From an uncultured Thermoleophilaceae bacterium (lineage in GTDB: Bacteria; Actinomycetota; Thermoleophilia; Solirubrobacterales; Thermoleophilaceae), in assembly GCA_963825345.1 (NCBI GenBank), contig CAWGSQ010000008.1, forward strand, positions 11,063-75,062: 64,000 nucleotides of DNA, in the 5' to 3' direction. Position numbers and translations under genes: made by a program. Positions 12,284 to 52,279 of the stretch are shown here, piece by piece (within the stretch, counting starts at the first letter, position 1; each line of letters starts with the position of its first letter). Under the pieces are notes generated by a model that was not told the DNA's origin, searched no databases, and saw nothing but the letters and a program-made list of their open reading frames with translations.

Positions 12284-13081
12284 ATGGAGAACGACCCCTT
12301 CGACGCCGCCGAGCAGTCCGCGGAGCCCGCTCCGCGCGGCGCGCCTCATCTGCGCCAGCGCGGCATGCGCACCGAGCCGTGCCGCTACGGCCAGTGTGAC
12401 GGCAGCGGCTGGATCGAGGTCGAGGAGACCAACGGCGCCCGCGAGTGCAGCTGCCGTCGCGAGCGCGTGGCCGCCGCGAGGGCGGCCCGGCTCGCCACGT
12501 CGATCCCGAGGCGCTACCTCGACGTGGACTTCGACCGCTGGCCGATCACCAACCTGGATCAGAAGATCGTTTCGTTCGTGAGGAAGTACTGCCGCCGCCT
12601 CGAGAAGAACATCGAGGACGGCACCGGCCTCTACTTCTACGGAGAGGTCGGGAGCGGAAAGACGAGCCTCGCCATGGTGGTCGCCAAGGAGGTGCTTCGC
12701 GAGCGCCGCTCGCTGGCGATCTTCTCGGGGCCGGACCTGCTCGCCAAGATCGTCTCGACCTACGAGGACCGCTCACCCGACACGTACCTCGGGCTGATGG
12801 AGCTGCTCGGAAGCGTCGACTTCCTGGTACTCGAGGACCTGGCGGTGGCGAAGCAGAGCGAGTGGCGCCTGGAACAGCTCTACGCCGTGATAAATAGGCG
12901 CTATCAGGACCGGCGGCCATTGTTGGTCACGGCCGACGTGGGTGCTCCGGAGCTGCTCGGCGAGCACATCGGGCCCCGCACCGGCTCACGCATTCTCGAG
13001 ATGTGCGAAGCGATCCCATTCCTCGACGGCGATCACCGTGTCAAGGCGACCACACCTGAGGACGTTCGGCTCGCGAGTTAG
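12284..13081 (+). CDS. DnaC/DnaI/IstB-like AAA+ ATPase with N-terminal 4-Cys zinc ribbon
   Basis: Walker A YFYGEVGSGKTSLA. Walker B DFLVLEDL. The downstream LYAVINRRYQDRRPLLVT is typical of helicase-loader/IstB ATPases. N-terminal CRYGQCDGSGW...ECSC. Confidence 0.7.
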   Translation: MENDPFDAAEQSAEPAPRGAPHLRQRGMRTEPCRYGQCDGSGWIEVEETNGARECSCRRERVAAARAARLATSIPRRYLDVDFDRWPITNLDQKIVSFVRKYCRRLEKNIEDGTGLYFYGEVGSGKTSLAMVVAKEVLRERRSLAIFSGPDLLAKIVSTYEDRSPDTYLGLMELLGSVDFLVLEDLAVAKQSEWRLEQLYAVINRRYQDRRPLLVTADVGAPELLGEHIGPRTGSRILEMCEAIPFLDGDHRVKATTPEDVRLAS

Positions 13082-13931
13082 CGCGGCGCTCGTGCTGGCG
13101 GGGCTTGTGCTGCCGGGGAGCGCGGCGGCGCAGGAGCGGACCGTCGAGACCGCCTCGTCGGGGGACGTGACCGCCGAGCTCTCGTACGTCAAGCGCCAGC
13201 GTGGGAAGGGTCAGTTCCGCTTCGAGGAGTTCCGCGACTTCCGGGTTCGCGTCCTTCGTGGCGGCCAGGTGCTCTACGACAAGCCGATCGGGAAGCCGTG
13301 CCAGCAGTTCTGCACGCCCACCGAGTCGGCCCTGACCCGCATGCACCTGGGCCTGCGTGACCTGAACGGCGACGGCGAGCCGGAGGCGATCGTGGACCTG
13401 TTCACCGGCGGGAGCAGCTGCTGCGTCTTCGTCTACGCGTTCGGCTTCGACCCCGCCGCCAACGTGTACCGGCGCGCTCGGCTCGACACCGGCGGCGGGT
13501 TCGTGGTGCGCGACTACGACCACGATGGCGTGCCCGAGCTCGTGGGCGACGACTTCCGCTTCCGCGGGCTCTTCACGTGTGGGGCCTGCGGCTCCCGGCC
13601 GATCCGGATCTGGCACTACGGCCTCAGGCGCTTCGAGGTTGTGACCCCCACGTTCCCGGCGAGCATCCGCACGCACGCGCGGCGCATGAAGCGCATCTAC
13701 GAGCGGGTGCGCCACAGAAAGGACGCGCCCGTGTTCGTGAAGGGCGCGCTCACTCCGTACGCGGCCGACCTCTGCCTGCTCGATCGCTGCGAGGCCGCCT
13801 TTCGCCTGGTGCGGCTCGCGATCCGGCGTGGCGAGCTGAACCGCCGTTCGGACTTCGACGTCTCGCCCCACGGCGCCGCGTACCTGAGCGCGCTCAAGCG
13901 CTTCCTGCGCCGCGCCGGCTACGTGAACTGA
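13038..13931 (+). CDS. secreted hypothetical protein with FG-GAP/VCBS-like DxDGDG motifs
   Basis: Track ORF 12942..13931. I prefer the in-frame GTG at 13038, which gives the signal-like N-terminus SRRPHLRTFGSRVSAALVLAGLVLPGSAAAQ. DLNGDGEPE and DYDHDGVPE motifs. The start is uncertain. Confidence 0.55.
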   Translation: MSRRPHLRTFGSRVSAALVLAGLVLPGSAAAQERTVETASSGDVTAELSYVKRQRGKGQFRFEEFRDFRVRVLRGGQVLYDKPIGKPCQQFCTPTESALTRMHLGLRDLNGDGEPEAIVDLFTGGSSCCVFVYAFGFDPAANVYRRARLDTGGGFVVRDYDHDGVPELVGDDFRFRGLFTCGACGSRPIRIWHYGLRRFEVVTPTFPASIRTHARRMKRIYERVRHRKDAPVFVKGALTPYAADLCLLDRCEAAFRLVRLAIRRGELNRRSDFDVSPHGAAYLSALKRFLRRAGYVN

Positions 13932-13934
13932 CGC

Positions 13935-14366
13935 CTAGGGAGCGGACTTGCGACGTCGCAGCGCGCGGCGCAGGGCCGCGCCTGTGGCGGCCATCCCGGC
14001 GCCGGCGGCGGCCACCGCGCCGGCCGCGAATCCGGTGAACGGCAGGGAAGCGTCGCCGCCACCCGTCGACCCACCTGCGCCCCCTCCGCCTGTCTCGGCT
14101 CCGGCGACGCCGCCACCACCCGCGCCACCTCCGCCGCCACCGCCGGAGGAGGTGTTCTCCCCACCGGCCAGGCCGCTATCGGGCGTGGTTCCCGGGGGCA
14201 GGTCGCCTCCCGAGGAAGTGCCGGGCGTGTCGGGTCCGCCAGGCGGCGAGCCGGGTACGAGCGGGCTGCTGACGCCCGCAACACCGAGCGGAAGGCCGGG
14301 AAGTGCAACGGCCGTGAGCTCGCGGAGCGTGCCGTAGTCCACAAGGGATGGCTTTTCGTACTGCAT
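13935..14366 (-). CDS. Gly/Pro-rich protein with C-terminal LPXTG sorting signal and lasso-leader-like N-terminus
   Basis: 143 aa. The C-terminus is LPFTG, then a hydrophobic stretch, then RRALRRRKSAP. The N-terminus is MQYEKPSLVDYGTLRELT. An in-frame TAG two codons upstream of the ATG excludes a longer N-terminus. Confidence 0.65.
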   Translation of the reverse strand: MQYEKPSLVDYGTLRELTAVALPGLPLGVAGVSSPLVPGSPPGGPDTPGTSSGGDLPPGTTPDSGLAGGENTSSGGGGGGGAGGGGVAGAETGGGGAGGSTGGGDASLPFTGFAAGAVAAAGAGMAATGAALRRALRRRKSAP

Positions 14367-14418
14367 CGGCTACACGATGAACGCGAGCCGAGATTCTCAA
14401 CTTGCGAGGTAGAAATGG

Positions 14419-18403: not shown

Positions 18404-19306
18404 ATGCCGGAGATCGTGGCGGACAAGCAGACGTGGGAGTTCCCCGAGGGACACGAGATCGCCCCGGGCAGGACGATCCTGAAACTACTCGGCGGGGGCA
18501 ACCGGTACGAGGTCTACCTCGTTTGGGACGACCGCCTCTTCAGCGTGATGGTGGCCAAGGTCCTGCGTCCGGACCTCGTGGAGGAGGAGTACGCGCTGCG
18601 CGGCCTGCGGCGGGAGATGGAGGCGCTCGAGGCGCTGGCCCATCCCGTGCTCCTGCGCGCCTTCGCGTCTCACATCGAGGGCCCGTACCCGCACGTGGTC
18701 GTGGAGCATCTCGAGGGGCCCACGCTGCGCAGGCTGATCAAGCAGAACGGCGCCCTGCCGGTCGAGCAGACGCTGCCGCTCGGGCTGCACGTGGCTTCCG
18801 TGATCCACTACATGGCCGAGGAGGGCTGGGTCCACCTGGACCTCAAGCCGGACAACCTCGTGATGGGGATCCCACCGAGGGTGATCGACCTGAGCCTCGC
18901 GCGCACGATCGAGCGCGCCCAGCGGCTCACGGACTACATCGGAACGAACGCGTACATGCCTCCCGAGCAGTGCAACCCGCGCGGCGACGTGGGCCCGCCG
19001 GCGGACGTCTGGGGGCTTGGGGCCACGCTCTACCACGCGGTGGCGGGCCGACTTCCCTTCAGGCGCCCGCGCACGCGGGAGGATGGCGCTCCGCTCGAGG
19101 ACCGCTTTCCCCAGCTCGAGGACGAGCCGCGCGCCTGGAGACGGCCGGTGCCGCAGGCCCTGTCGGACGCGATCCTGGCGTGCCTCGAGAAGGACCCCGC
19201 CCAGCGGCCGACCGCGGGTGAGCTGGCGATGATGCTTCAGCCGCTGGTGGCGGAGCTTCCCGCGAAGCTCGTGCTGGGTCGCCGCGGGCCCACCCGGCTG
19301 GGCTGA
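18404..19306 (+). CDS. stand-alone Ser/Thr protein kinase domain protein
   Basis: Gly loop LGGGNRYEVY, VAK lysine, HLDLKPDN catalytic loop, DLS in place of DFG, YMPPE, DVWGLG. There is no TM segment or sensor domain. Confidence 0.8.
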   Translation: MPEIVADKQTWEFPEGHEIAPGRTILKLLGGGNRYEVYLVWDDRLFSVMVAKVLRPDLVEEEYALRGLRREMEALEALAHPVLLRAFASHIEGPYPHVVVEHLEGPTLRRLIKQNGALPVEQTLPLGLHVASVIHYMAEEGWVHLDLKPDNLVMGIPPRVIDLSLARTIERAQRLTDYIGTNAYMPPEQCNPRGDVGPPADVWGLGATLYHAVAGRLPFRRPRTREDGAPLEDRFPQLEDEPRAWRRPVPQALSDAILACLEKDPAQRPTAGELAMMLQPLVAELPAKLVLGRRGPTRLG

Positions 19307-19325: not shown

Positions 19326-19922
19326 GTGAGCTTTGCCTGTCCGCGGTGTTCCAAAGGCATGCAACCACACCCTTCCCACGCATATCTTCGACTTTCCGAG
19401 GGCCCCGAGGACCTTCTCGGCGCCGAGCTGTCGCTGACGCGGCGGCTGCTCACGCTGTTCGTGGCGTTCGTGCTGTTCTCGGGCACGTCCCTGTTCGCCA
19501 CCGCTGCCCTCGACCTGGATCACGGGCTGATCGGCAAGGCCCTGGCGACCAACGCGAAGGCCAGCCATGACGGCGACGACGACAACTCCGGCCCGGGTGG
19601 TGGCGGCGACGATGACGACGATGACGCTGACAGCGACAGCGACTCGAGCACCCACCAGGGCACGGTGCGCGTGAAGGCCGACGATTCGCATTCGGACCAG
19701 AGCCACGACGGCACGACCGACTCGAGCCACGGCCAGCAGGCCACCGACTCGAACTCGGACGACAACGGAAACGGTGCCTCCGACTCGAGCAAGGCCCAGC
19801 AGTCCGACGACTCGAACTCGGACGACAACCATGACGGCAACACGGACTCGAGCCGTGGCGCGTCGGTGAGCATGCGCTCCCACGCCACGAGCGACGGCCG
19901 CGGCGACCACACCCGCGGGTAG
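19326..19922 (+). CDS. membrane-anchored acidic Asp/Ser/Asn-rich repeat protein (hypothetical)
   Basis: One hydrophobic helix (LLTLFVAFVLFSGTSLFATAAL), then a D/S/N-rich tail containing 63-bp tandem repeats. The start codon is uncertain. Confidence 0.5.
   Translation: MSFACPRCSKGMQPHPSHAYLRLSEGPEDLLGAELSLTRRLLTLFVAFVLFSGTSLFATAALDLDHGLIGKALATNAKASHDGDDDNSGPGGGGDDDDDDADSDSDSSTHQGTVRVKADDSHSDQSHDGTTDSSHGQQATDSNSDDNGNGASDSSKAQQSDDSNSDDNHDGNTDSSRGASVSMRSHATSDGRGDHTRG
19719..19859 (+). repeat. 63-bp coding tandem repeat (2 full units plus a partial one)
   Basis: Units start with GACTCGAGC at 19719, 19782 and 19845. They encode DSS(H/K)(G/A)QQ(A/S)(T/D)DSNSDDN-x5. Confidence 0.8.
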
Positions 19923-29383: not shown

Positions 29384-29457
29384 CGGGGCGTGGCGCAGCC
29401 TGGCAGCGCGCCGCCTTTGGGTGGCGGAGGTCCCCGGTTCGAATCCGGGCGCCCCGA
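29384..29457 (+). tRNA. tRNA-Pro (anticodon TGG)
   Basis: Hand-folded 74-nt cloverleaf: acceptor CGGGGCG/CGCCCCG, D arm GCGC..GCGC, anticodon stem CCGCC/GGCGG with loop TTTGGGT, T arm CCCGG-TTCGAAT-CCGGG, discriminator A. No encoded CCA. Confidence 0.9.
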
Positions 29458-29964: not shown

Positions 29965-30038
29965 GCCCCGGTAGCTCAGCTGGAAAGAGCGGCGGCCTTC
30001 TAAGCCGCGGGTCGCAGGTTCGAGTCCTGCCCGGGGCG
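29965..30038 (+). tRNA. tRNA-Arg (anticodon TCT)
   Basis: Hand-folded 74-nt cloverleaf: acceptor GCCCCGG/CCGGGGC, D arm GCTC..GAGC, anticodon stem GCGGC/GCCGC with loop CTTCTAA, T arm GCAGG-TTCGAGT-CCTGC, discriminator G. Confidence 0.9.
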
Positions 30039-30063
30039 CCTTCAACAGGAGTAGGGTCAGAAG

Positions 30064-33586: not shown

Positions 33587-36500
33587 GTGCCGGATTCGGC
33601 CCGCGCGCAGCTGGCCCTCGGGCGGTCCGACGCGCGCGTGGTCGCGCGCTATGGCGAGTTCGCCGTGGTCGAGGCAATCGGGGATGACGACGAGCGCCTG
33701 CGCGGCGCCGGCGCCACCCGCCGAGACGACATGCGCGAAGTGCTCCTGGCGGGTGGCCAGCTCGATCCCGCGGCGCGGCCTTCGCTGGCGGGCAAGGAGG
33801 CGCCGGACCGCGGCGAGGCACTCGTGCTCGTCCAGTTCGTCGCCCCGATCAAGGACGAGTGGCTCGCGAAGCTGCGCGGCACCGGCGCGACTGTGCTCGG
33901 CTACGCCGCCCAGAACTCATACATCGTGCACGCCTCGGGAGACGCTCTCGACCGCGTGACCGAGCTGGTGGGCGCCTACCCGGCGGTGCGCGCCGCGACC
34001 GCCCTGCGCCCCTCCGACAAGGTCGAGCGCGGCGCCGCGAGCGGACGAGTCGCGGTTCAGACGGTGGCGGGCGCCCCGGGCGCGGACGCTCGCAGCCAGG
34101 CGGACGACGCCGGCGAGCAGATCGCCGCCGACCTCGCCGTCGCCGAGGTCCACACCCAGTTCCTGAACCTGAGCGCCGCTGAGGTGAGCGCGCTGGCGGC
34201 CGACCCGGCGGTTGTTGCCATCGAGCCTGCCGGAGTGCCCGAGCTTCATGACGAGCGGAGCGCCCAGATCGTTGCCGGCAATCTGATCGGCAACGCACCG
34301 AGCGGTCCGGGGTACGACGCGTGGCTGGTGACGAACGGATTCGGAGCCCCGTTCGGCTTTGCCATCGACGTGACGGATTCCGGCCTCGACAGAGGCAGTA
34401 CGACGGTCGTCCACCCGGACCTGCTCGGTCGCGTCAGCTACGCCCACGACTACACGGCCGATCCCGACGCCACGGACTGCGGCGGGCACGGCACGAACGT
34501 GGCGTCGATCGCCGCGGGCGTGAGCACCGCGTCGGGCCAGGACGCCGCCGCCTACAAGCACGGGCTCGGCGTGGCCCCCTTCGCCCAGGTGGGCGCCTCC
34601 AAGATCTTCCGCTGCACCGGCGCAGCCGCGGCGGTCAACTACGCAACGCTGACCGCGGCCGCCTACGCCGGCGGCGCGCGGATCTCCAACAACTCCTGGG
34701 GGATCTCGAACTTCGGCGGCTACCACGCCGCGTCGCAGGCATACGACGCCCTGGTGCGCGACGCCTCGGCGAGCGACCCGGGAAACCAGGAGATGGTCGA
34801 GGTCTTCTCCGCCGGAAACGACGGCGACGGGAAGGGCAACCCGCTCGACCCCAAGGGCGACGAGGGTTACGGCAGCATCACGGCGCCGGGCACGGCCAAG
34901 AACGTGATCACGGTCGGCGCCTCGGAGAGCGTGCGCGGCTCGGGCACGGACGGCTGCGGCGTCACGAACGGCGGGGCGGACAGCGCCAGCGACATCATCA
35001 ACTTCTCGGGCCGCGGGCCCACCCAGGACGGGCGCCTGAAGCCGGACCTGGTGGCCCCCGGCACGCACATCACGGGCGCCTCGCCCCAGCACGCCGGCTA
35101 CACCGGCACGGCGGTGTGCGACAAGACCTTCGGCGGCAGCAGCTTCTACTCGCTCGTCTCGGGCACCTCGCAGGCCGCCCCGCACGTGGCCGGCGCGGCC
35201 GCGCTGCTGCGCGACTGGTACCTGCGCCAGGTGAGCACAACGCCGCCGTCGCCCGCCCTCACCAAGGCGATCCTCGTGAACACCGCCGTGGACGTGGCCG
35301 GAGGCGACAGCGGCAAGAACAGCTCGATCCCCGCCGCGCCGAACACCGACGAGGGCTGGGGCCGCGTGAGCATCGGAGCCGCTCTCGACGGGACCCAGCG
35401 CGAGTACCTCGACCAGAGCGCCGCGACGACGCTCGACGCCAACGGTCAGAGCCTCCTGCGCTCCTATCAGGTGGACGACTCGGCGAAGCCCGTGCGCGTG
35501 ACGCTTGCGTGGACCGACCCGCCGCCCGCCACGATCACCGGTAACGCGTTCGTGAACGACCTCGACCTCGAGGTGAGCGTGGGCGGCCGCACCTACCGCG
35601 GCAACTGGCTCGCCGGTGGCCTCTCGGTGCCGGGCGGCCAGGCCGACTTCCGCAACAACCTCGAGAACGTGGTGCTCCCCGCGAGCACGAGCGGGCGCAT
35701 GTCGGTGAAGGTGGTGGCGAAGTCGCTCGGCGGCGACGGTGTTCCGGGCAACGGCAAGCCGCTCGACCAGGACTTCGCCCTGGTGGTCTCGAATGCGCAG
35801 GAGCAGCTCTCGTCGCCGGTGCTCGGGCAGGGCGCGGCGACGATCGACGACACGGTGGATGACCAGAACGGCGACGGCTACCTCGAGCCCACTGAGTCGT
35901 TCGCTCTCCGCCAGCGTGTGCGCAACACCGGCACCGATGTGGCCACGGGGGTGTCCGCCACGCTCGCCGGCAACGGCGCGCTGAGCCTCACCCAGGCGAG
36001 CTCGACCTATCCCGACATCACGGCCGACTCGGATCAGGAGAACGACATTGCCTTCGAGGGCGCACTCGGAGGCGCGGCGACATGCGGCGTGGACGCCACG
36101 GGCATGCTCGACGTGACGAGCGTCGAGGGCGGGACGCAGTCTGTGCCGGTCACGATTCCCACCGGGCGCGCGGGCCCCGCCACCACGCACTCGCGGACTC
36201 AGACGCTCGCCATCCCCGACGACGACGCCGGCGGTGTCGTGTCCACGCTGTTCGTGCCGATCAGCGGTCGCATCAAGGACCTCGACGTTCGGATCAACAG
36301 CATCGACCACAGCTTCGTTGGTGACCTCAAGGTCGAGCTCGTGAGCCCGGACAACGCCACGACCGTGCGCCTGATCGAGCACGTGGGCGGGCCGAACAAC
36401 GGCGGCGACGACCTCGTCGACACCGTCTTCGACGACGAGGCGGCCACGGCCATCGGCGCCGGCGCGAGCGCCGCTCCGTACACCGGCAGCTTCCGCCCGC

Positions 36501-37810
36501 AGGCCGACCAACTCGGGCGCTTCGACGGCAAGGAGCAGCAGGGCACGTGGAAGCTGAGGGTGAGCGACCGCTACGAGAACGACACCGGCTCGCTGCTCTC
36601 CTGGGGCCTCACGATCCGCACCGCCCAGTGCGACCCGGACGTGAACGCGCCCGACACCGCGATCCAGGTTGCACCCCCCTCGCGCGCCGGCTCCCGCACC
36701 GCCAGCTTCGAGTTCACCGCCACCAAGGCCGGGACGCAGTTCCAGTGCCGCCTCGACGGCGGGGACTTCAGCCCGTGCAGCTCCCCGCAGGAGTTCGGCA
36801 ACCTGCCCGAGGGCAGCCACACCTTCGAGGTCAGGGCGTTCGACTCGAAGGGCAACGTGGACGGCAGTCCCGCCGTGTACACGTGGACCGTCGACGTGAC
36901 CGCGCCGGCGCCTCGCATCGCCGCGGTCTCCGGGGCGGCGCCGCACGTGCAGGGGAATGCCGGCACGGGCTCCGGCGACGACGGCAGCATCACGGTCGAC
37001 CTCTACTCCGGCTCCGCCGCGAGCGGGGCACCCGTGCAGTCGGTGGTGGTCGCCCGCGACGGGTCCGGCTCCTTCAGCGCGGACTTCGCGCGCGTGGGCG
37101 CGGGCACCTACACGGTGAGCGCGCATCAGAAGGACGCGGCCGGCAACGTCGGCTCGAGCGCGCCCGTGACCTTCGCCGCGGCGGGCGACCCGCCGCCAGA
37201 CTTCGCGGTCGTCTCCACCGACGACTCGCTTGCCGACGCCTCCGGGGGCCGGCTCGCTGCTCTCTCGAGCTGCGAGGGCGCCTGCCGCCGGAGCAACGCG
37301 CTGGTCGTTTCGCCGAAGACGGCCGTCCGCCTCGGCCTGCCGCGCCGGAGCGTGCGCCTCGGCACCGGCAGCGGGCGCGTGAAGCTGACCCGCGCGGCAC
37401 GCAACGCGCTCCGCCGTAGCCGAGGCGCGAAGGCAACGCTTCAGGCGGTGGCCGGATCGGTTTCGCTGTCGAAGACGATCACACTGCACCCGAAGCTCGC
37501 GCCATCACGCATCGCGAGCCGCGGCCTCAGGCTCGCCGGCAGGTGCTCCTCGGCCTGCACCATGAACGCGCGGCTGCTCGTGAGCGCCGCCACCGCACGT
37601 CGGCTCGGCCTCGGCAGGCGCAGCGTCGCCATCGGGAGCGGCGCCGCCAACGCCGCGGCAGACCAGACGAAGACGGTCACCGTGCGGCTGTCGCGCTCGG
37701 CCCGGACGAAGCTGTCCCGCGCCCGCAGCGCCGACGTGACGCTCGAGATCACGGTGCACGGCGCGGGCACCGCGAGCCGCCGCGCCACACGCCGGCTCAC
37801 GCTCGGCTAG
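33587..37810 (+). CDS. large secreted subtilisin-like (S8) serine protease with proprotein-convertase P-domain and C-terminal repeat modules
   Basis: Catalytic motifs DVTDSGLD, HGTNVASIAAG and SGTSQAAPHVAGAAALL. P-domain DHSFVGDLKVELVSPDN...GTWKLRVSD. An I9-like propeptide sits at the N-terminus. The coordinates follow the first canonical start (GTG 33587). A signal-peptide-like stretch is encoded in frame upstream (33464-33586); see findings. Confidence 0.85.
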   Translation: MPDSARAQLALGRSDARVVARYGEFAVVEAIGDDDERLRGAGATRRDDMREVLLAGGQLDPAARPSLAGKEAPDRGEALVLVQFVAPIKDEWLAKLRGTGATVLGYAAQNSYIVHASGDALDRVTELVGAYPAVRAATALRPSDKVERGAASGRVAVQTVAGAPGADARSQADDAGEQIAADLAVAEVHTQFLNLSAAEVSALAADPAVVAIEPAGVPELHDERSAQIVAGNLIGNAPSGPGYDAWLVTNGFGAPFGFAIDVTDSGLDRGSTTVVHPDLLGRVSYAHDYTADPDATDCGGHGTNVASIAAGVSTASGQDAAAYKHGLGVAPFAQVGASKIFRCTGAAAAVNYATLTAAAYAGGARISNNSWGISNFGGYHAASQAYDALVRDASASDPGNQEMVEVFSAGNDGDGKGNPLDPKGDEGYGSITAPGTAKNVITVGASESVRGSGTDGCGVTNGGADSASDIINFSGRGPTQDGRLKPDLVAPGTHITGASPQHAGYTGTAVCDKTFGGSSFYSLVSGTSQAAPHVAGAAALLRDWYLRQVSTTPPSPALTKAILVNTAVDVAGGDSGKNSSIPAAPNTDEGWGRVSIGAALDGTQREYLDQSAATTLDANGQSLLRSYQVDDSAKPVRVTLAWTDPPPATITGNAFVNDLDLEVSVGGRTYRGNWLAGGLSVPGGQADFRNNLENVVLPASTSGRMSVKVVAKSLGGDGVPGNGKPLDQDFALVVSNAQEQLSSPVLGQGAATIDDTVDDQNGDGYLEPTESFALRQRVRNTGTDVATGVSATLAGNGALSLTQASSTYPDITADSDQENDIAFEGALGGAATCGVDATGMLDVTSVEGGTQSVPVTIPTGRAGPATTHSRTQTLAIPDDDAGGVVSTLFVPISGRIKDLDVRINSIDHSFVGDLKVELVSPDNATTVRLIEHVGGPNNGGDDLVDTVFDDEAATAIGAGASAAPYTGSFRPQADQLGRFDGKEQQGTWKLRVSDRYENDTGSLLSWGLTIRTAQCDPDVNAPDTAIQVAPPSRAGSRTASFEFTATKAGTQFQCRLDGGDFSPCSSPQEFGNLPEGSHTFEVRAFDSKGNVDGSPAVYTWTVDVTAPAPRIAAVSGAAPHVQGNAGTGSGDDGSITVDLYSGSAASGAPVQSVVVARDGSGSFSADFARVGAGTYTVSAHQKDAAGNVGSSAPVTFAAAGDPPPDFAVVSTDDSLADASGGRLAALSSCEGACRRSNALVVSPKTAVRLGLPRRSVRLGTGSGRVKLTRAARNALRRSRGAKATLQAVAGSVSLSKTITLHPKLAPSRIASRGLRLAGRCSSACTMNARLLVSAATARRLGLGRRSVAIGSGAANAAADQTKTVTVRLSRSARTKLSRARSADVTLEITVHGAGTASRRATRRLTLG

Positions 37811-37832
37811 GACCCGACCCCCTAAAGACCTA

Positions 37833-37844
37833 GGCCGATCGGCC
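37833..37844. promoter_or_regulatory. 12-bp perfect palindrome GGCCGATCGGCC between the protease stop and the GGDEF gene start
   Basis: Seen directly in the sequence. It could be a small terminator stem or an operator; I cannot decide which. Confidence 0.25.
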
Positions 37845-37856
37845 GAGTCAAGGGGC

Positions 37857-39284
37857 ATGTGGGACAAGGAGTGGCTCGAGTCCCTGGTCGCCAACGTGCC
37901 CGGCGCCATATACCGGTGCGCCTTCAAGAGCGACTGGGAAATGGAGTTCATGAGCGAGGGGATCGAGCAGATCACCGGCTATCCGGCGTCCCAGTTCATC
38001 GGCAACCAGGCACGCTCGTACGCGAGCGTCATCCATCCAGCCGACCGCAGCGCGGTCGAGGACGAGGTGGATGCATGCGTGGCGCGCCGTGAGCCGTTCA
38101 TCCTCGAGTACCGCGTGCTCGCGGCGGATGGCGAGGTGGTTTGGGTGCACGAGCAGGGACGGGCCGTCTGCGGCGCTGACGGCGAGGTCCTGTACCTGGA
38201 CGGATCGATTTTCGATATCGGCGAGCGCAAACGGCTCGAGGCGCAGCTCGAGCACCTCGCCTACCACGATGCTCTGACGGGGCTGCCCAACCGGCGCCGA
38301 CTGATGGAGAGCCTCCACGGCCTCGACGGGCCCCACCTGCTCGCCTTCTTCGACCTCGACGGCTTCAAGGCGTACAACGACGCGTTCGGGCATTCGGAGG
38401 GCGACCTGCTGCTGCGCCGTCTGAGCAGGAAGCTCCGCAGGGCTGTGGAACGGCGCGGCACCGCCTTTCGCCTCGGGGGCGACGAGTTCTGCATCCTCGC
38501 TCCGATGCCGGCGATGGGCGGCCGCTACCTCCTTGCGGCATCACTCGAGGCGCTCAGCGAGACCGGCGAGGGCTTCGCGATTCAGGCGTCCTCGGGAAGC
38601 GTCGCGCTCCCCGAGGAGGCGCACGACGCCACCGCCGCACTCATGCTCGCCGACCAGCGCATGTACGCCGACAAGGGCGTCGGGCGCGTATCCGCGAAGC
38701 AGCAGACGCGCGACATCGTCCTGCGCGTCCTGGCCGAAGGGCGGCCTGACCTGCACGAGCAGTCTGGGGCCGTCGCCTGTCTGGCGAGGTCGGTCGGTGA
38801 GCGGCTCGGCATCCGTGCGGACGACCTCGAGGACCTGGAGCGCGCCGCGGAGCTGCACGACATCGGGAAGATCGCAATCCCCGACGCGATTCTGAACAAG
38901 GCCGGCGCACTCGACGAGGAGGAATGGGGCTTCATGCGCCGGCACACGCTGATCGGCGAGAGCATGCTGAGCGCAGCACCGGTCCTACACGCGGCCGCGA
39001 GGATCGTTCGCTCGAGCCACGAGCGCTACGACGGGATCGGGTATCCGGACGGCATCGGCGGGTCCAAGATCCCGCTCGCCAGTCGCATCGTCTTCGTTTG
39101 CGACGCCTTCCACGCCATGACCACAGACCGACCCTACGGCTCCGCCCGCAGTGTCGAGTCGGCCCTCGAAGAGCTCTCCAAGTGCGCCGGCACTCAGTTC
39201 GATCCCGCCGTCGTCGCGGCATTCCGCGAGGAGATCGCGGCCGGCGCTGCCGAGCCAGCCGCTCGCCGCGTCGCCCTGCGCTAG
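37857..39284 (+). CDS. PAS - GGDEF - HD-GYP c-di-GMP signalling protein
   Basis: PAS region (GAIYRC...VIHPADR...EYRVLAADGEVVWVHE). GGDEF domain with an intact RLGGDEF. HD-GYP domain with HDIGK and HERYDGIGYPDG. Confidence 0.85.
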   Translation: MWDKEWLESLVANVPGAIYRCAFKSDWEMEFMSEGIEQITGYPASQFIGNQARSYASVIHPADRSAVEDEVDACVARREPFILEYRVLAADGEVVWVHEQGRAVCGADGEVLYLDGSIFDIGERKRLEAQLEHLAYHDALTGLPNRRRLMESLHGLDGPHLLAFFDLDGFKAYNDAFGHSEGDLLLRRLSRKLRRAVERRGTAFRLGGDEFCILAPMPAMGGRYLLAASLEALSETGEGFAIQASSGSVALPEEAHDATAALMLADQRMYADKGVGRVSAKQQTRDIVLRVLAEGRPDLHEQSGAVACLARSVGERLGIRADDLEDLERAAELHDIGKIAIPDAILNKAGALDEEEWGFMRRHTLIGESMLSAAPVLHAAARIVRSSHERYDGIGYPDGIGGSKIPLASRIVFVCDAFHAMTTDRPYGSARSVESALEELSKCAGTQFDPAVVAAFREEIAAGAAEPAARRVALR

Positions 39285-39432: not shown

Positions 39433-39506
39433 GGTGGGCGTAGCTCAGTAGGTAGAGCTCCTGGTTGTGGTCCAGGCGGTCGCGGGTTCGAGTCCCGTCG
39501 CTCACC
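39433..39506 (+). tRNA. tRNA-His (anticodon GTG) including encoded G-1
   Basis: Hand-folded cloverleaf: G-1 then acceptor GTGGGCG/CGCTCAC, C73 pairing with G-1, anticodon stem CCTGG/CCAGG with loop TTGTGGT, T arm GCGGG-TTCGAGT-CCCGT. Confidence 0.9.
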
Positions 39507-39569
39507 CCTCGGAAGGTCCTGCTAAGCCCAGGTTTTTCTTTTCCGGAGAGCGCGCCACTTCGGCGCCGT

Positions 39570-50429: not shown

Positions 50430-51425
50430 ATGGCTACCCCTGAATCACTCGCAATCGAGGCCAGCAGCCTCGTAAAGAGCTTCGGTGACGTGCGCGCCGT
50501 GAATGGCGTGGATCTGGCCGTTCGCAGCGGCTCGGTGTACGGCGTGCTCGGCCCGAACGGGGCCGGGAAGACAACCACCATCCGGATATTGGCCACGCTG
50601 CTAAGGGCGGACGAGGGGTCCGCGTCCGTCATGGGCCACGACGTGGCGACCGAGGGCGACGCTGTGCGCCGCCTCGTCAGCCTCACGGGCCAGATGGCGT
50701 CGGTCGACGAGGACCTCACGGGGCGCGAGAACCTGATCCTGCTGGGCAGGCTGCTGGGTCTGCAGCGGGCGGGCGCGAAGGCCCGCGCGAGCGAGTTGCT
50801 CGAGGCGTTTGGGCTGGAGGAGGCGGCCGCCCGGCTCGTGAAGAATTACTCGGGCGGAATGCGGCGCAGGCTCGACATCGCGGCGAGCCTCGTGGTTACG
50901 CCCGAGCTGCTCTTCCTGGACGAGCCGACGACCGGCCTCGACCCCCGTTCCCGCAATCAGGTCTGGGACATAGTGCGTGCGCTGGCAGCCGGGGGTACGA
51001 CGATCCTCCTGTGCACGCAGTACCTGGATGAAGCCGACCAGCTCGCCGACGGGATCGCCGTCATCGACCATGGCAAAGTGATCGCCGAGGGAACGCCTAG
51101 CCAGCTCAAGTCATCCGTGGGCTCGGGCGCACTCCACGTACGGCTGCTCGACCCCGACCAGCGTCCCGAGGCGGAGCGACTGCTGGCGAGCGAGCTCGGC
51201 ACGGTCCACCTCGAGCCCGATCCGGCCTCGTTGTCCGTGCAATGCGCGGATCCCGACCGCGGGGCCGAGGCCATCGCGAGGCTCGCCCGCGCTGGCGTCC
51301 GGGTCGGATCGTTCTCGCTGGGCCAGCCGAGCCTCGACGAGGTGTTCCTCGCGCTGACAGGACGACCGGCTGAGGACCAGACGGCCGAAGTAGGACCACG
51401 CGCCACCGAGGAGCAGGTGGCATGA
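50430..51425 (+). CDS. ABC transporter ATP-binding protein (DrrA-like)
   Basis: Walker [10 protein letters not shown], signature YSGGMRRRL, Walker [13 protein letters not shown], plus a C-terminal DrrA-type domain. Confidence 0.9.
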
Positions 51426-52279
51426 CCGGGGCCCAGACGCAGACGGTGGCAGGTCAGGCCGATACCCCGGCCGAGGGGGCTGTGCTTCAGAAGGCCCTTG
51501 CGACCACACAGCGGCCCGGCGGTGCCAGCCCGGTGTCGGCCGCGCTCACGTTCGGATGGCGCGGAATGCTGAAGGTGAAGCACGTGCCGGAGCAGCTCCT
51601 CGACGTGACGATCACACCCGTGATGTTCCTGCTCCTGTTCACCTACCTGTTCGGCGGCGCGATCGCGGGGTCGACAGGCGAGTATCTCGACTACACGCTC
51701 CCCGGCATCCTCGTGATGTCCGTGCTGTTCACGACGGTGTATTCGGGGATCGCCCTCAACACTGACCTGACGAAGGGCGTCGTGGACCGCTTCCGGTCGC
51801 TCCCGATCTGGCAACCGGCCCCGCTCGTCGGAGCCTTGCTCGGCGACAGCGTCCGCTACCTGGTGGCGGGCACCGTGATCGTGGTTCTCGGAGTTGTGCT
51901 CGGCTTCCGGCCGGAGGCGGGCGTGCCCGGGGTGCTCGCGGCAATGGCGCTGGTAACGGTGTTCGCGTTCGGCCTCTCCTGGGTGTTCACGACCCTTGGC
52001 CTCTTGATGCGCTCGCCGAACGCCGTCATGAACGCAGGTTTCATGGCCATCTTTCCGCTCACCTTCCTGAGCAACGTCTTCGTGGAGCCCGAGACGCTGC
52101 CGAGCGCGCTTGAGGCGTTCGTGAACGTGAACCCGATCTCGATCCTCGCGGATGCATCTCGAGGACTGATGGCCGGCGACGCGTCCGGCGGCGACATCGG
52201 CATCGCAATGGGCACGGCCGCACTCCTGACCGCCGTGTTCGCACCGCTGACGACCCGGCTCTACCGCAGCAGGAGCTGA
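51422..52279 (+). CDS. ABC-2 type transporter permease (DrrB-like)
   Basis: 285 aa with six TM helices. 4-nt overlap with the ATPase gene. Confidence 0.85.

Follow-up and report, generated by a model that had tools for sequence, protein, structure and literature searches.

How is a protein made and exported that begins like the precursor of a lasso peptide, ends like a surface protein anchored to the cell wall and has no Sec signal peptide? The question is raised by a gene for a protein of 143 amino acids (aa) in the window, that is, the whole 64-kb stretch of DNA analysed here, from an uncultured Thermoleophilaceae bacterium. This protein belongs to a large unnamed family of Thermoleophilaceae, characterized by a lasso-type leader, a disordered acidic stalk and an LPXTG-type signal. 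Distant members of the family are genetically coupled to lasso operons, an HPr-kinase-like enzyme, a DrrAB-like ABC-2 exporter and surface-glycan genes. The sequence data suggest that machinery for peptide antibiotics serves soil Thermoleophilaceae in the processing of a cell-wall protein. A leader-guided surface protein, similar to peptides that are ribosomally synthesized and modified post-translationally (RiPPs), which would first be tailored in the cytoplasm, with export and anchoring to follow, is considered to have an even chance of being the right description, any single step being less certain.

The features of the gene and of its product are as follows (positions in the window; labels L001, L002 and so on denote related loci).

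13935..14366, minus strand: whole coding sequence of the lasso-leader/LPFTG-anchor protein, subfamily A1 (open reading frame (ORF) listing, homologues, synonymous-rich divergence from L001 and L002)
14310..14366, minus strand: lasso-type leader, residues 1–19, MQYEKPSLVDYGTLRELTA (NF033521 match, conservation, confidence of the AlphaFold2 (AF2) model)
14229..14309, minus strand: post-leader module, residues 20–46, VALPGLPLGVAGVSSPLVPGSPPGGPD, a weakly hydrophobic Pro/Gly stretch followed by a conserved Ser-Ser-Pro (alignments, hydropathy)
14046..14228, minus strand: disordered acidic Gly/Pro/Ser/Thr-rich stalk with a Gly7 run, residues 47–107 (composition, charge, predicted local distance difference test (pLDDT), variability of homologues)
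14031..14045, minus strand: LPFTG motif, residues 108–112 (conservation)
13971..14030, minus strand: 20-residue Ala/Gly-rich hydrophobic helix, residues 113–132, FAAGAVAAAGAGMAATGAAL (hydropathy, AF2)
13938..13970, minus strand: basic tail RRALRRRKSAP, residues 133–143, net charge +6 (conservation, charge)
14370..14372, minus strand: in-frame TAG two codons 5' of the ATG (read from the sequence)
14378..14405, minus strand: upstream element GCAAGTyGrGAA..TCG...GCGTT, kept in the syntenic loci L001 and L002 (alignment)

Lasso-Type Leader

Residues 3–18 match the pattern Y-x2-P-x-L-x3-G-x5-T, with Y3, P6, L8, G12 and T18 (position -2) as the leader positions, and cleavage by the B2 protease is predicted after A19. 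The spacing of this motif, pointed out in the earlier note, is confirmed by the NCBIfam model NF033521 (lasso_leader_L3), which matches residues 3–19 with 23.3 bits against a curated cutoff of 19. By score, the window protein is a 'lasso RiPP family leader peptide-containing protein' in the sense of NF033521; a bona fide lasso precursor of 41 aa, encoded in a related locus, reaches 24.1 with this model. Among 32 aligned relatives, 16 are matched by NF033521 (E<=0.01), no other model matching.

The leader logo of 200 members reads Y(99%) x x P(100%) x [VI] x D(83%) [YH] G(100%) x L(92%) x x [LIM] T(98%) A(66%); the Tyr, Pro, Gly and Thr of the motif are thus conserved at 98–100%, although the mean column identity across a 60-member alignment is only 30%. 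The leader Tyr is located 3–16 residues from the protein start in 56 of the 60 members. When the window and 12 related loci, translated in all six frames, were scanned with the leader motif as a regular expression (regex), only family members and true lasso precursors were returned. In an AF2 run with the 60-sequence alignment, confidence is highest at residues 1–20, peaking in the leader with pLDDT values of 88 and 78. Selection acts strongly on the leader, Thr(-2) included. Thr(-2) is described as the critical determinant of leader removal (PMC10368454).

Post-Leader Region, Stalk and C-Terminal Sorting Signal

The post-leader region contains a conserved Ser motif, represented by VSSP in the window protein, by ASSVP or LSxP in others and by D[LM]SFS[ST]P in subfamily B; a motif of the S-x-P type occurs in 144 of 200 members. 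The residues immediately after the leader, VALPGLPLG, are without Asp or Glu at the predicted core positions 7–9, and no more than ~6% of the 200 members have an acidic residue there. Core position 1 is Val in the window protein and Asp, Ser, Ala or Gln in the family, not Gly. A classical lasso core was therefore rejected for the window protein, as the ring-forming acid is absent; the doubt expressed earlier about a macrolactam core extends to more than 90% of the members.

The linker of the family is composed of G (36%), P (11%), A (11%) and S (9.5%), and the stalk differs between homologues in both length and sequence. According to AF2, the middle of the protein is disordered (pLDDT below 50–57), and a single helix is located at residues 112–140. 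The net charge of the N-domain is -7 in the window protein, with a family median of -8.

At the C-terminus, P109 and G112 of the LPFTG motif are invariant in the alignment, while L108, F110 and T111 are at least 90% conserved. The hydrophobic segment has a median length of 20 residues in 60 members. In the basic tail, R133 never varies, R134 and R138 show at least 90% conservation, and the family median charge is +5. The window protein thus shows the tripartite pattern of a sorting signal: LPXTG, a hydrophobic segment and a basic tail. By the positive-inside rule, the acidic N-domain and the basic tail predict an N-out, C-in topology, which would resemble that of a sortase substrate after translocation.

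No Sec-type N-terminus was found among the members when the N-termini of the window protein and its homologues were inspected for hydropathy and charge. The N-terminal n-region is net negative, and the post-leader stretch contains Pro and Gly. The minus-strand sequence at the start reads TAG CCG ATG; the upstream in-frame TAG leaves no start further upstream and, therefore, no hidden signal peptide. The latter was rejected on the basis of this stop and of the N-termini of homologues. The absence of an upstream signal peptide, claimed previously, is accordingly upheld, residues 18–32 being weakly hydrophobic all the same. No homologue has a normal signal peptide, which argues against a truncated version of a signal-peptide protein.

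Control proteins with the same ELPFTGF tail have an MKSR or MRSR n-region and a KD15 (mean Kyte–Doolittle score over the best 15-residue window) of 1.8–2.75; they come from soil-metagenome contigs and may not belong to Thermoleophilaceae. Two further unnamed families end in ELPFTGF[AP]...RR (L016 662-1709; L025; L032; L034; L040; L018-L050). The first is represented by proteins with MKSR or MRSR, a transmembrane segment and a conserved 'AQY' as well as an acidic linker, the second by proteins in which a GKDC.DHGNA.GNEDHC motif precedes long (TTTP)n-like Thr/Pro repeats and ELPFTGFPAW.

Size and Subfamilies of the Family

A single-sequence search returned 60 homologues of 101–186 aa. The profile search against 1.84 billion cluster representatives yielded 1247 proteins at E<=1e-3, of which 237 remain at E<=1e-10; the clusters are defined at 50% identity, hence at least 237 clusters share the architecture, and the designation 'orphan' in the earlier note had to be abandoned. 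All 143 best new representatives end in an LPXTG-type signal (136 LPFTG, 4 LPFSG, 2 LAFTG and 1 LPVTG). The leader was detected by regex in 136 of the 143, the others being near variants or calls truncated at the N-terminus. Uncultured bacteria are the source of all members; where a source is named, it is a metagenome-assembled genome (MAG) of Thermoleophilaceae. Every named member is annotated as a 'hypothetical protein', the label that the family now carries wherever it is found.

In subfamily B, the D[LM]SFS element aligns with the C-terminal DLTFS of co-resident lasso cores (MAFFT). By its sequence, the N-terminus of this subfamily resembles an entire precursor, the core of which is shortened and acid-less, extended by the stalk and the anchor. 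There is a hint that the window subfamily, with VSSP, diverged further and left the cluster.

Sister subfamily A2, in which the leader is followed by QLEQALPAGIGVAGASSVP, is found in a cell-division neighbourhood (L009 9539-10102; L055 2576-3037; L056; L057). The order of genes at this fixed slot is Cu-oxidase_4 (YfiH-like), YggS-like, hydrolase, member, SepF, ProC, YggT, LspA and RluD, the member being located between the YggS-like gene or the hydrolase and sepF (L009, L055-57). In subfamily A3, the leader is followed by DAGMLMPFG or DVGMFLPFG, and a gene for a large AAA_16 (+GerE) LuxR-type regulator is always next (L058 5559-7449, L059 7439-10954). Exopolysaccharide (EPS) genes, namely, GT2, flippase and pyruvyl transferase, lie just upstream of the A3 member in L059, the sole A3 case beside EPS genes.

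Distant Members Beside Lasso and Glycan Genes

In three loci, L003, L010 (a Thermoleophilaceae MAG) and L052, the gene of the member is divergently adjacent to a complete lasso operon containing ABC_tran, ABC2_membrane (DrrAB-like), PqqD, an HPr-kinase-like gene, B2, an Asn-synthase-like cyclase, a true precursor and NTP_transf_5:

L003, 3538-9884: lasso operon
L010, 4650-11285: lasso operon
L052, 6-5716: lasso operon

B2 of this type of operon matches NF033537 with 70.5 bits (cutoff 33), and the best match of the operon PqqD is lasso PqqD. The leader of the true precursor reads M(T/K)Y(E/Q).P.(V/I)(V/L)D(Y/H)GTL..LTA, and its core reads GQ(S/Q)DG(N/S)FTDR.FPVNTP...LTFS(D), with Gly1 and Asp9 compatible with a 9-residue ring. 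The previous suggestion of a new leader-guided surface protein family is favoured over its alternative, motif convergence, because the true precursors of the neighbouring lasso operons carry the same leader as the adjoining members. The proposed survey of the neighbours of paralogues thus revealed PqqD and the Asn-synthase-like cyclase beside distant members in the related loci.

Other distant members were found among glycan genes. In L004/L005 and L051, an operon of the member, ABC_tran, ABC2 and an HPr-kinase-like gene is located amid genes for glycosyltransferases, sulfation and a flippase. In L006/L007, a kinase paralogue directly follows the member, and a second kinase occurs with the cyclase and a 38-aa precursor; PqqD, ABC2, ABC_tran and NTP_transf_5 are present within 7 kb, as are Wzy_C, a gene for a chain-length determinant, three GT4 genes and one for an EPS-type amidotransferase, with PqqD, ABC2 and NTP_transf_5 of L006 4 kb away. 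In L054, GT2/GT4 genes, an ABC ATPase and Wzy_C flank the member. Across ~12 independent contexts, the kinase and the ABC-2 exporter occur within 10 kb in 6, PqqD and the cyclase with a true precursor in 4, and glycan genes in 8. Such linkage is beyond chance, because lasso clusters are a tiny fraction of a genome.

The conserved lasso cluster of Thermoleophilaceae represents a paeninodin/pseudomycoidin-like set of kinase and nucleotidyltransferase in a deep actinobacterial lineage. From their gene content, the clusters of L003, L010 and L052 would produce phospho- or glyco-lasso peptides. The 38-aa precursor of L006 (3124-3240), MYEKPKVRDYGDLTELTAVVTGGQAEEVGIKSNQTKVG, is encoded next to the kinase and the cyclase; cleavage after Thr-Ala would give Val as an unusual core residue 1, with Glu8 and Glu9 as ring candidates. 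A separate clade of member-adjacent kinases, distinct from those of the lasso operons, was considered and dropped, all groups being mutually 34–42% identical with no clear split. Weak matches to TIGR04352, TIGR04355, TIGR04353 and TIGR04249, all far below the cutoffs, were found; ScmC is described in NCBIfam as a SynChlorMet cassette protein.

Genomic Context in the Window and Close Relatives

The window, L001 and L002 are syntenic: genes for acyl-CoA dehydrogenase, enoyl-CoA hydratase, 3-hydroxyacyl-CoA dehydrogenase and Thiamine_BP are followed by the member, and the proteins of L001 and L002 are 67–72% identical to the window protein. A tblastn search of the 64-kb window for lasso genes with cyclase, PqqD, kinase, nucleotidyltransferase and B2 queries retrieved only a generic ABC ATPase at 50.4–51.1 kb. 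Pfam scans of 20 further ORFs of the window revealed no lasso, sortase or glycan gene, and no other LPXTG tails are encoded in the window. The earlier statement that cyclase, B2 protease, PqqD and sortase genes are missing from the window agrees with these searches and with a regex for TLxTC, a weak test.

Coding Status and Expression of the Gene

The frame at 13935-14366 codes for a real, conserved gene. According to the ORF listing, its product of 143 aa (plus stop), including the Gly7 run, is identical to the sequence quoted in the earlier note. The leader codons of the window and L001 differ by 8 synonymous and 3 non-synonymous changes; synonymous changes are also numerous outside the leader, and they predominate in the conserved parts in comparisons with both L001 and L002. 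The gene was called in L001, L002 and other loci by gene callers from several sources. Its GC content at third codon positions (GC3) is 0.76 versus ~0.9 for neighbouring genes, and long ORFs overlap 13935-14366 in other frames and on the opposite strand, as expected in GC-rich low-complexity DNA. An exact look-up found no entry identical to the window protein in public assemblies.

The gap between the Thiamine_BP gene and the target gene is 52 nt and houses the conserved element at 14378..14405. No Shine–Dalgarno sequence precedes the ATG, and a scan for consensus promoters and terminators around the gene found nothing. These features may point to a promoter of the gene's own and a short or absent 5' untranslated region.

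Proposed Route of Maturation and Alternatives

A route can be proposed tentatively. In its most novel form, the chances of which are put somewhat below even, a RiPP recognition system consisting of a PqqD-type RiPP recognition element (RRE), the HPr-kinase-like enzyme, B2 and the ABC-2 exporter would mature and export a full-length, sortase-anchored wall protein, the lasso leader replacing the Sec signal and dispersed paralogues being served in trans. The leader would dock onto a PqqD-type RRE, encoded outside the window in the source genome, and the unfolded protein would be kept in the cytoplasm for tailoring. Binding to the PqqD-type RRE and cleavage by B2 would be retained, because the Y-P-V-G face and Thr(-2) are conserved; the B2 protease would probably cut the leader off after T18-A19, and no macrolactam ring would be formed. 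As the likeliest tailoring, the HPr-kinase-like enzyme would phosphorylate the conserved Ser that directly follows the leader, a step proposed because the kinase recurs beside members; a nucleotidyltransferase-like enzyme or glycosyltransferases may extend the modification. In lasso clusters, HPr-kinase homologues phosphorylate the precursor while it is still linear, ahead of B2 and C, and PsmN, a nucleotidyltransferase-like enzyme, attaches a hexose to phospho-Ser (PMC9266682, PMC8498205).

The acidic N-terminal domain would be translocated post-translationally, with the linked ABC-2 exporter or N-tail insertion as possible means, because a Sec signal is lacking and the only strong topogenic element is the helix with the basic tail at the extreme C-terminus. 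An N-terminal Sec signal would compete with leader-guided tailoring in the cytoplasm; the C-terminal topogenic element emerges only once translation ends and would, therefore, fit an order of tailoring first and export later. Sortase would then cleave LPFTG between Thr and Gly, fixing the stalk to the wall within a glycan-associated surface layer. As glycan genes, including those of Wzy_C- and PMT_2-type enzymes, lie nearby, the stalk itself may be glycosylated or form part of the glycan layer. The window copy would be a dispersed paralogue served in trans; action of the partners in trans is assumed because the window-type members are without linked lasso or kinase genes.

A number of results weigh against this route. 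No lasso or kinase gene is present within 10 kb of the member in the window, L001, L002 or subfamilies A2 and A3, and PqqD, B2 and the cyclase are absent within 10 kb in L004 and L051. No ORF of the TLxTC type, expected for sortase, was found by regex, a weak test, in the window or in any related locus examined. The Pfam scan of the window protein gave no family at E<=10, hence no Gram_pos_anchor match, and in the NCBIfam scan the leader model was the sole match, the LPXTG anchor models missing the tail; of the sorting signal once called 'textbook', the pattern of LPFTG, helix and basic tail stands, while recognition by the models of both databases fails. The C-terminal helix and the post-leader stretch are both weakly hydrophobic, with a KD15 of 1.59 and 1.62 (residues 18–32), respectively. 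A real difficulty for the kinase step is that characterized lasso kinases require a C-terminal Ser (PMC8498205), whereas the conserved Ser is internal here (S33/S34) and the C-terminus reads ...KSAP.

Several other explanations of the same gene were weighed. The leader could be a relic: a precursor gene would have been fused to the stalk and anchor, and the leader-like segment would now serve an atypical export signal as its n-region only, residues 18–32 forming a weak h-region and no RiPP enzyme acting. The post-leader stretch TAVALPGLPLGVAGV, as hydrophobic as the C-terminal helix and followed by small residues, is consistent with this, as are the window-type subfamilies unlinked to lasso genes and the resemblance of subfamily B to a whole precursor with a degraded core. 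However, n-regions of signal peptides show no single-residue conservation, unlike the nearly invariant Y, P, G and Thr(-2) of members that are only ~40% identical overall. The putative n-region is net negative, the putative h-region contains Pro and Gly or, in subfamily A2 (QLEQALPAG), charged residues, and the LPFTGF-tailed control proteins, from soil metagenomes and possibly not of Thermoleophilaceae, have MKSR/MRSR and the KD15 values given above. Linkage to the kinase and exporter in six independent contexts also argues against a relic, which is considered unlikely but still deserving of some weight. Unlikely as well, and given rather little weight, is a decoy, scaffold or regulator, that is, a membrane-tethered leader mimic which would bind PqqD and B2 and either bring lasso biosynthesis to the exporter or titrate this machinery, tuning lasso-peptide output or immunity. 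The divergent position of the member next to the ABC-PqqD-kinase-B2-cyclase operon in three loci, a leader resembling that of the co-resident precursor, yet without the ring-forming acid, and a C-terminus like a membrane anchor would suit such a role. The positive-inside rule, however, makes the basic tail cytoplasmic and turns the leader to the outside, remote from the cytoplasmic enzymes; L004 and L051 pair the member with an exporter and a kinase but have no cyclase, B2 or precursor to regulate. Dispersed paralogues in housekeeping loci are likewise at odds with a decoy, and for a mere tether the strict conservation of LPFTG would be superfluous.

That the protein is the carrier of an excised RiPP is judged very improbable. 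The first 35–40 residues, comprising the leader and a core ending in ...SFS or ...VSS, would be cut out, and the stalk and anchor would serve as follower or carrier; alignment of D[LM]SFS with the C-terminal DLTFS of true cores points in this direction, and such a cut would create the C-terminal Ser that known lasso kinases require. Against it, the excised core would be without a ring-forming acid at positions 7–9, there is no conserved candidate for a second protease, and the SFS motif is absent from the window subfamily. Conservation of the stalk, LPFTG, helix and basic tail over more than 200 clusters argues that the C-terminal part is itself the product. A spurious ORF in GC-rich low-complexity DNA, for which only the lowered GC3 and the overlapping long ORFs could speak, is refuted by the predominance of synonymous substitutions in conserved parts, by the 237 homologous clusters (E<=1e-10) with the same ends and by the concordant calls of several gene callers; its probability is negligible.

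Comparison with Known Systems

By its sequence, the window protein would work most like a lasso/RiPP precursor at the N-terminus and like a sortase substrate at the C-terminus. With kinase-associated lasso precursors of the paeninodin/pseudomycoidin type, the family shares the YxxPx(L/V)x3Gx5T leader with Thr at -2, passing NF033521; the neighbours of its relatives are alike (PqqD (B1), B2, Asn-synthase-like cyclase, HPr-kinase homologue, NTP_transf_5 and ABC exporter), and subfamily B keeps a DLSFS element like the C-terminus of the core. In contrast, lasso precursors are ~40 aa long versus 143 aa for the window protein and have no counterpart to its long disordered stalk and LPXTG-type anchor. 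A lasso core begins with a small residue such as Gly and has Asp or Glu at position 7, 8 or 9 for the macrolactam, whereas the window protein has Val1, no acid and no ring. Lasso precursors are encoded beside B1, B2 and C, as are the distant members of L003, L010, L052 and L006, but not the window copy. In phosphorylated lasso peptides of the paeninodin type, a C-terminal Ser is combined with a kinase of the cluster, while in the window protein the Ser is internal and a kinase is adjacent only in relatives.

With LPXTG sortase substrates, the protein has in common LPFTG, a hydrophobic segment (20 residues) and a cluster of Arg/Lys, all after a low-complexity stalk. These substrates have a Sec signal, which the family lacks; in addition, the family helix is unusually Ala/Gly-rich, the anchor models miss it, and no sortase was seen in linked DNA. 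The window protein should not be filed either as a lasso precursor or as a sortase substrate, because it fails the defining feature of each, namely, the ring-forming core and the signal peptide.

Long-leader RiPP families of the prochlorosin and Nif11/NHLP types have dispersed paralogues served in trans, and their products are small secreted peptides, the leader of which is removed by the exporter. The likeness consists of many paralogous leader genes, in a cluster or scattered, with a conserved leader and a variable remainder. None of these families is known to have a cell-wall sorting signal. PEP-CTERM/exosortase, 'HPr-rel-A' and SynChlorMet cassettes (TIGRFAMs; PqqD-like and HprK-like genes near EPS loci) are similar in having C-terminally sorted low-complexity proteins at polysaccharide loci with PqqD/HprK pairs nearby. 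However, PEP-CTERM proteins have the motif PEP and a signal peptide, whereas the family has LPXTG and no signal peptide, and PqqD scores best here as lasso PqqD. A literature search retrieved no publication linking a lasso leader or RRE with LPXTG or sortase and nothing on sortases in Thermoleophilia.

RiPP leaders and recognition elements are usually seen as devices for small peptides. An intact lasso leader on a large family of wall-anchor type near lasso, kinase, exporter and glycan genes implies that the same recognition logic may be applied to proteins of the cell envelope. If RiPP machinery does mature a wall-anchored protein, this would be a categorically new route for building the Gram-positive surface and a new class of substrates for lasso machinery. 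An LPXTG-type signal without a signal peptide poses the problem of how these proteins cross the membrane. The L052-type cluster is compact (~7 kb plus the gene of the member), which suits heterologous expression.

Other Features of the Window

The convergent neighbour of the target gene, 12942-13931 (+), ends 4 nt from the target stop and encodes a protein of 329 aa with a signal-peptide-like N-terminus and DxDGDG-type repeats; it belongs to no Pfam family and is missing from this position in L002. The gene at 19326-19922 (+), directly after a Ser/Thr protein kinase gene (18404-19306), codes for a protein of 198 aa, also of no Pfam family, that combines a single hydrophobic segment with a low-complexity tail extremely rich in Asp/Ser/Asn/Gly. 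The regions 33587-39284 and 50430-52279 contain genes for a 1407-aa subtilase (P-domain, Ig-like domain) and for a PAS-GGDEF-HD protein. They also contain a pair of genes for a DrrAB-like ABC-2 transporter, whose ATPase is only 32% identical to the exporter ATPase of the lasso clusters. The sole Rfam/ARAGORN matches in the window are tRNA-Pro(TGG) at 29384-29457, tRNA-Arg(TCT) at 29965-30040 and tRNA-His(GTG) at 39434-39508.

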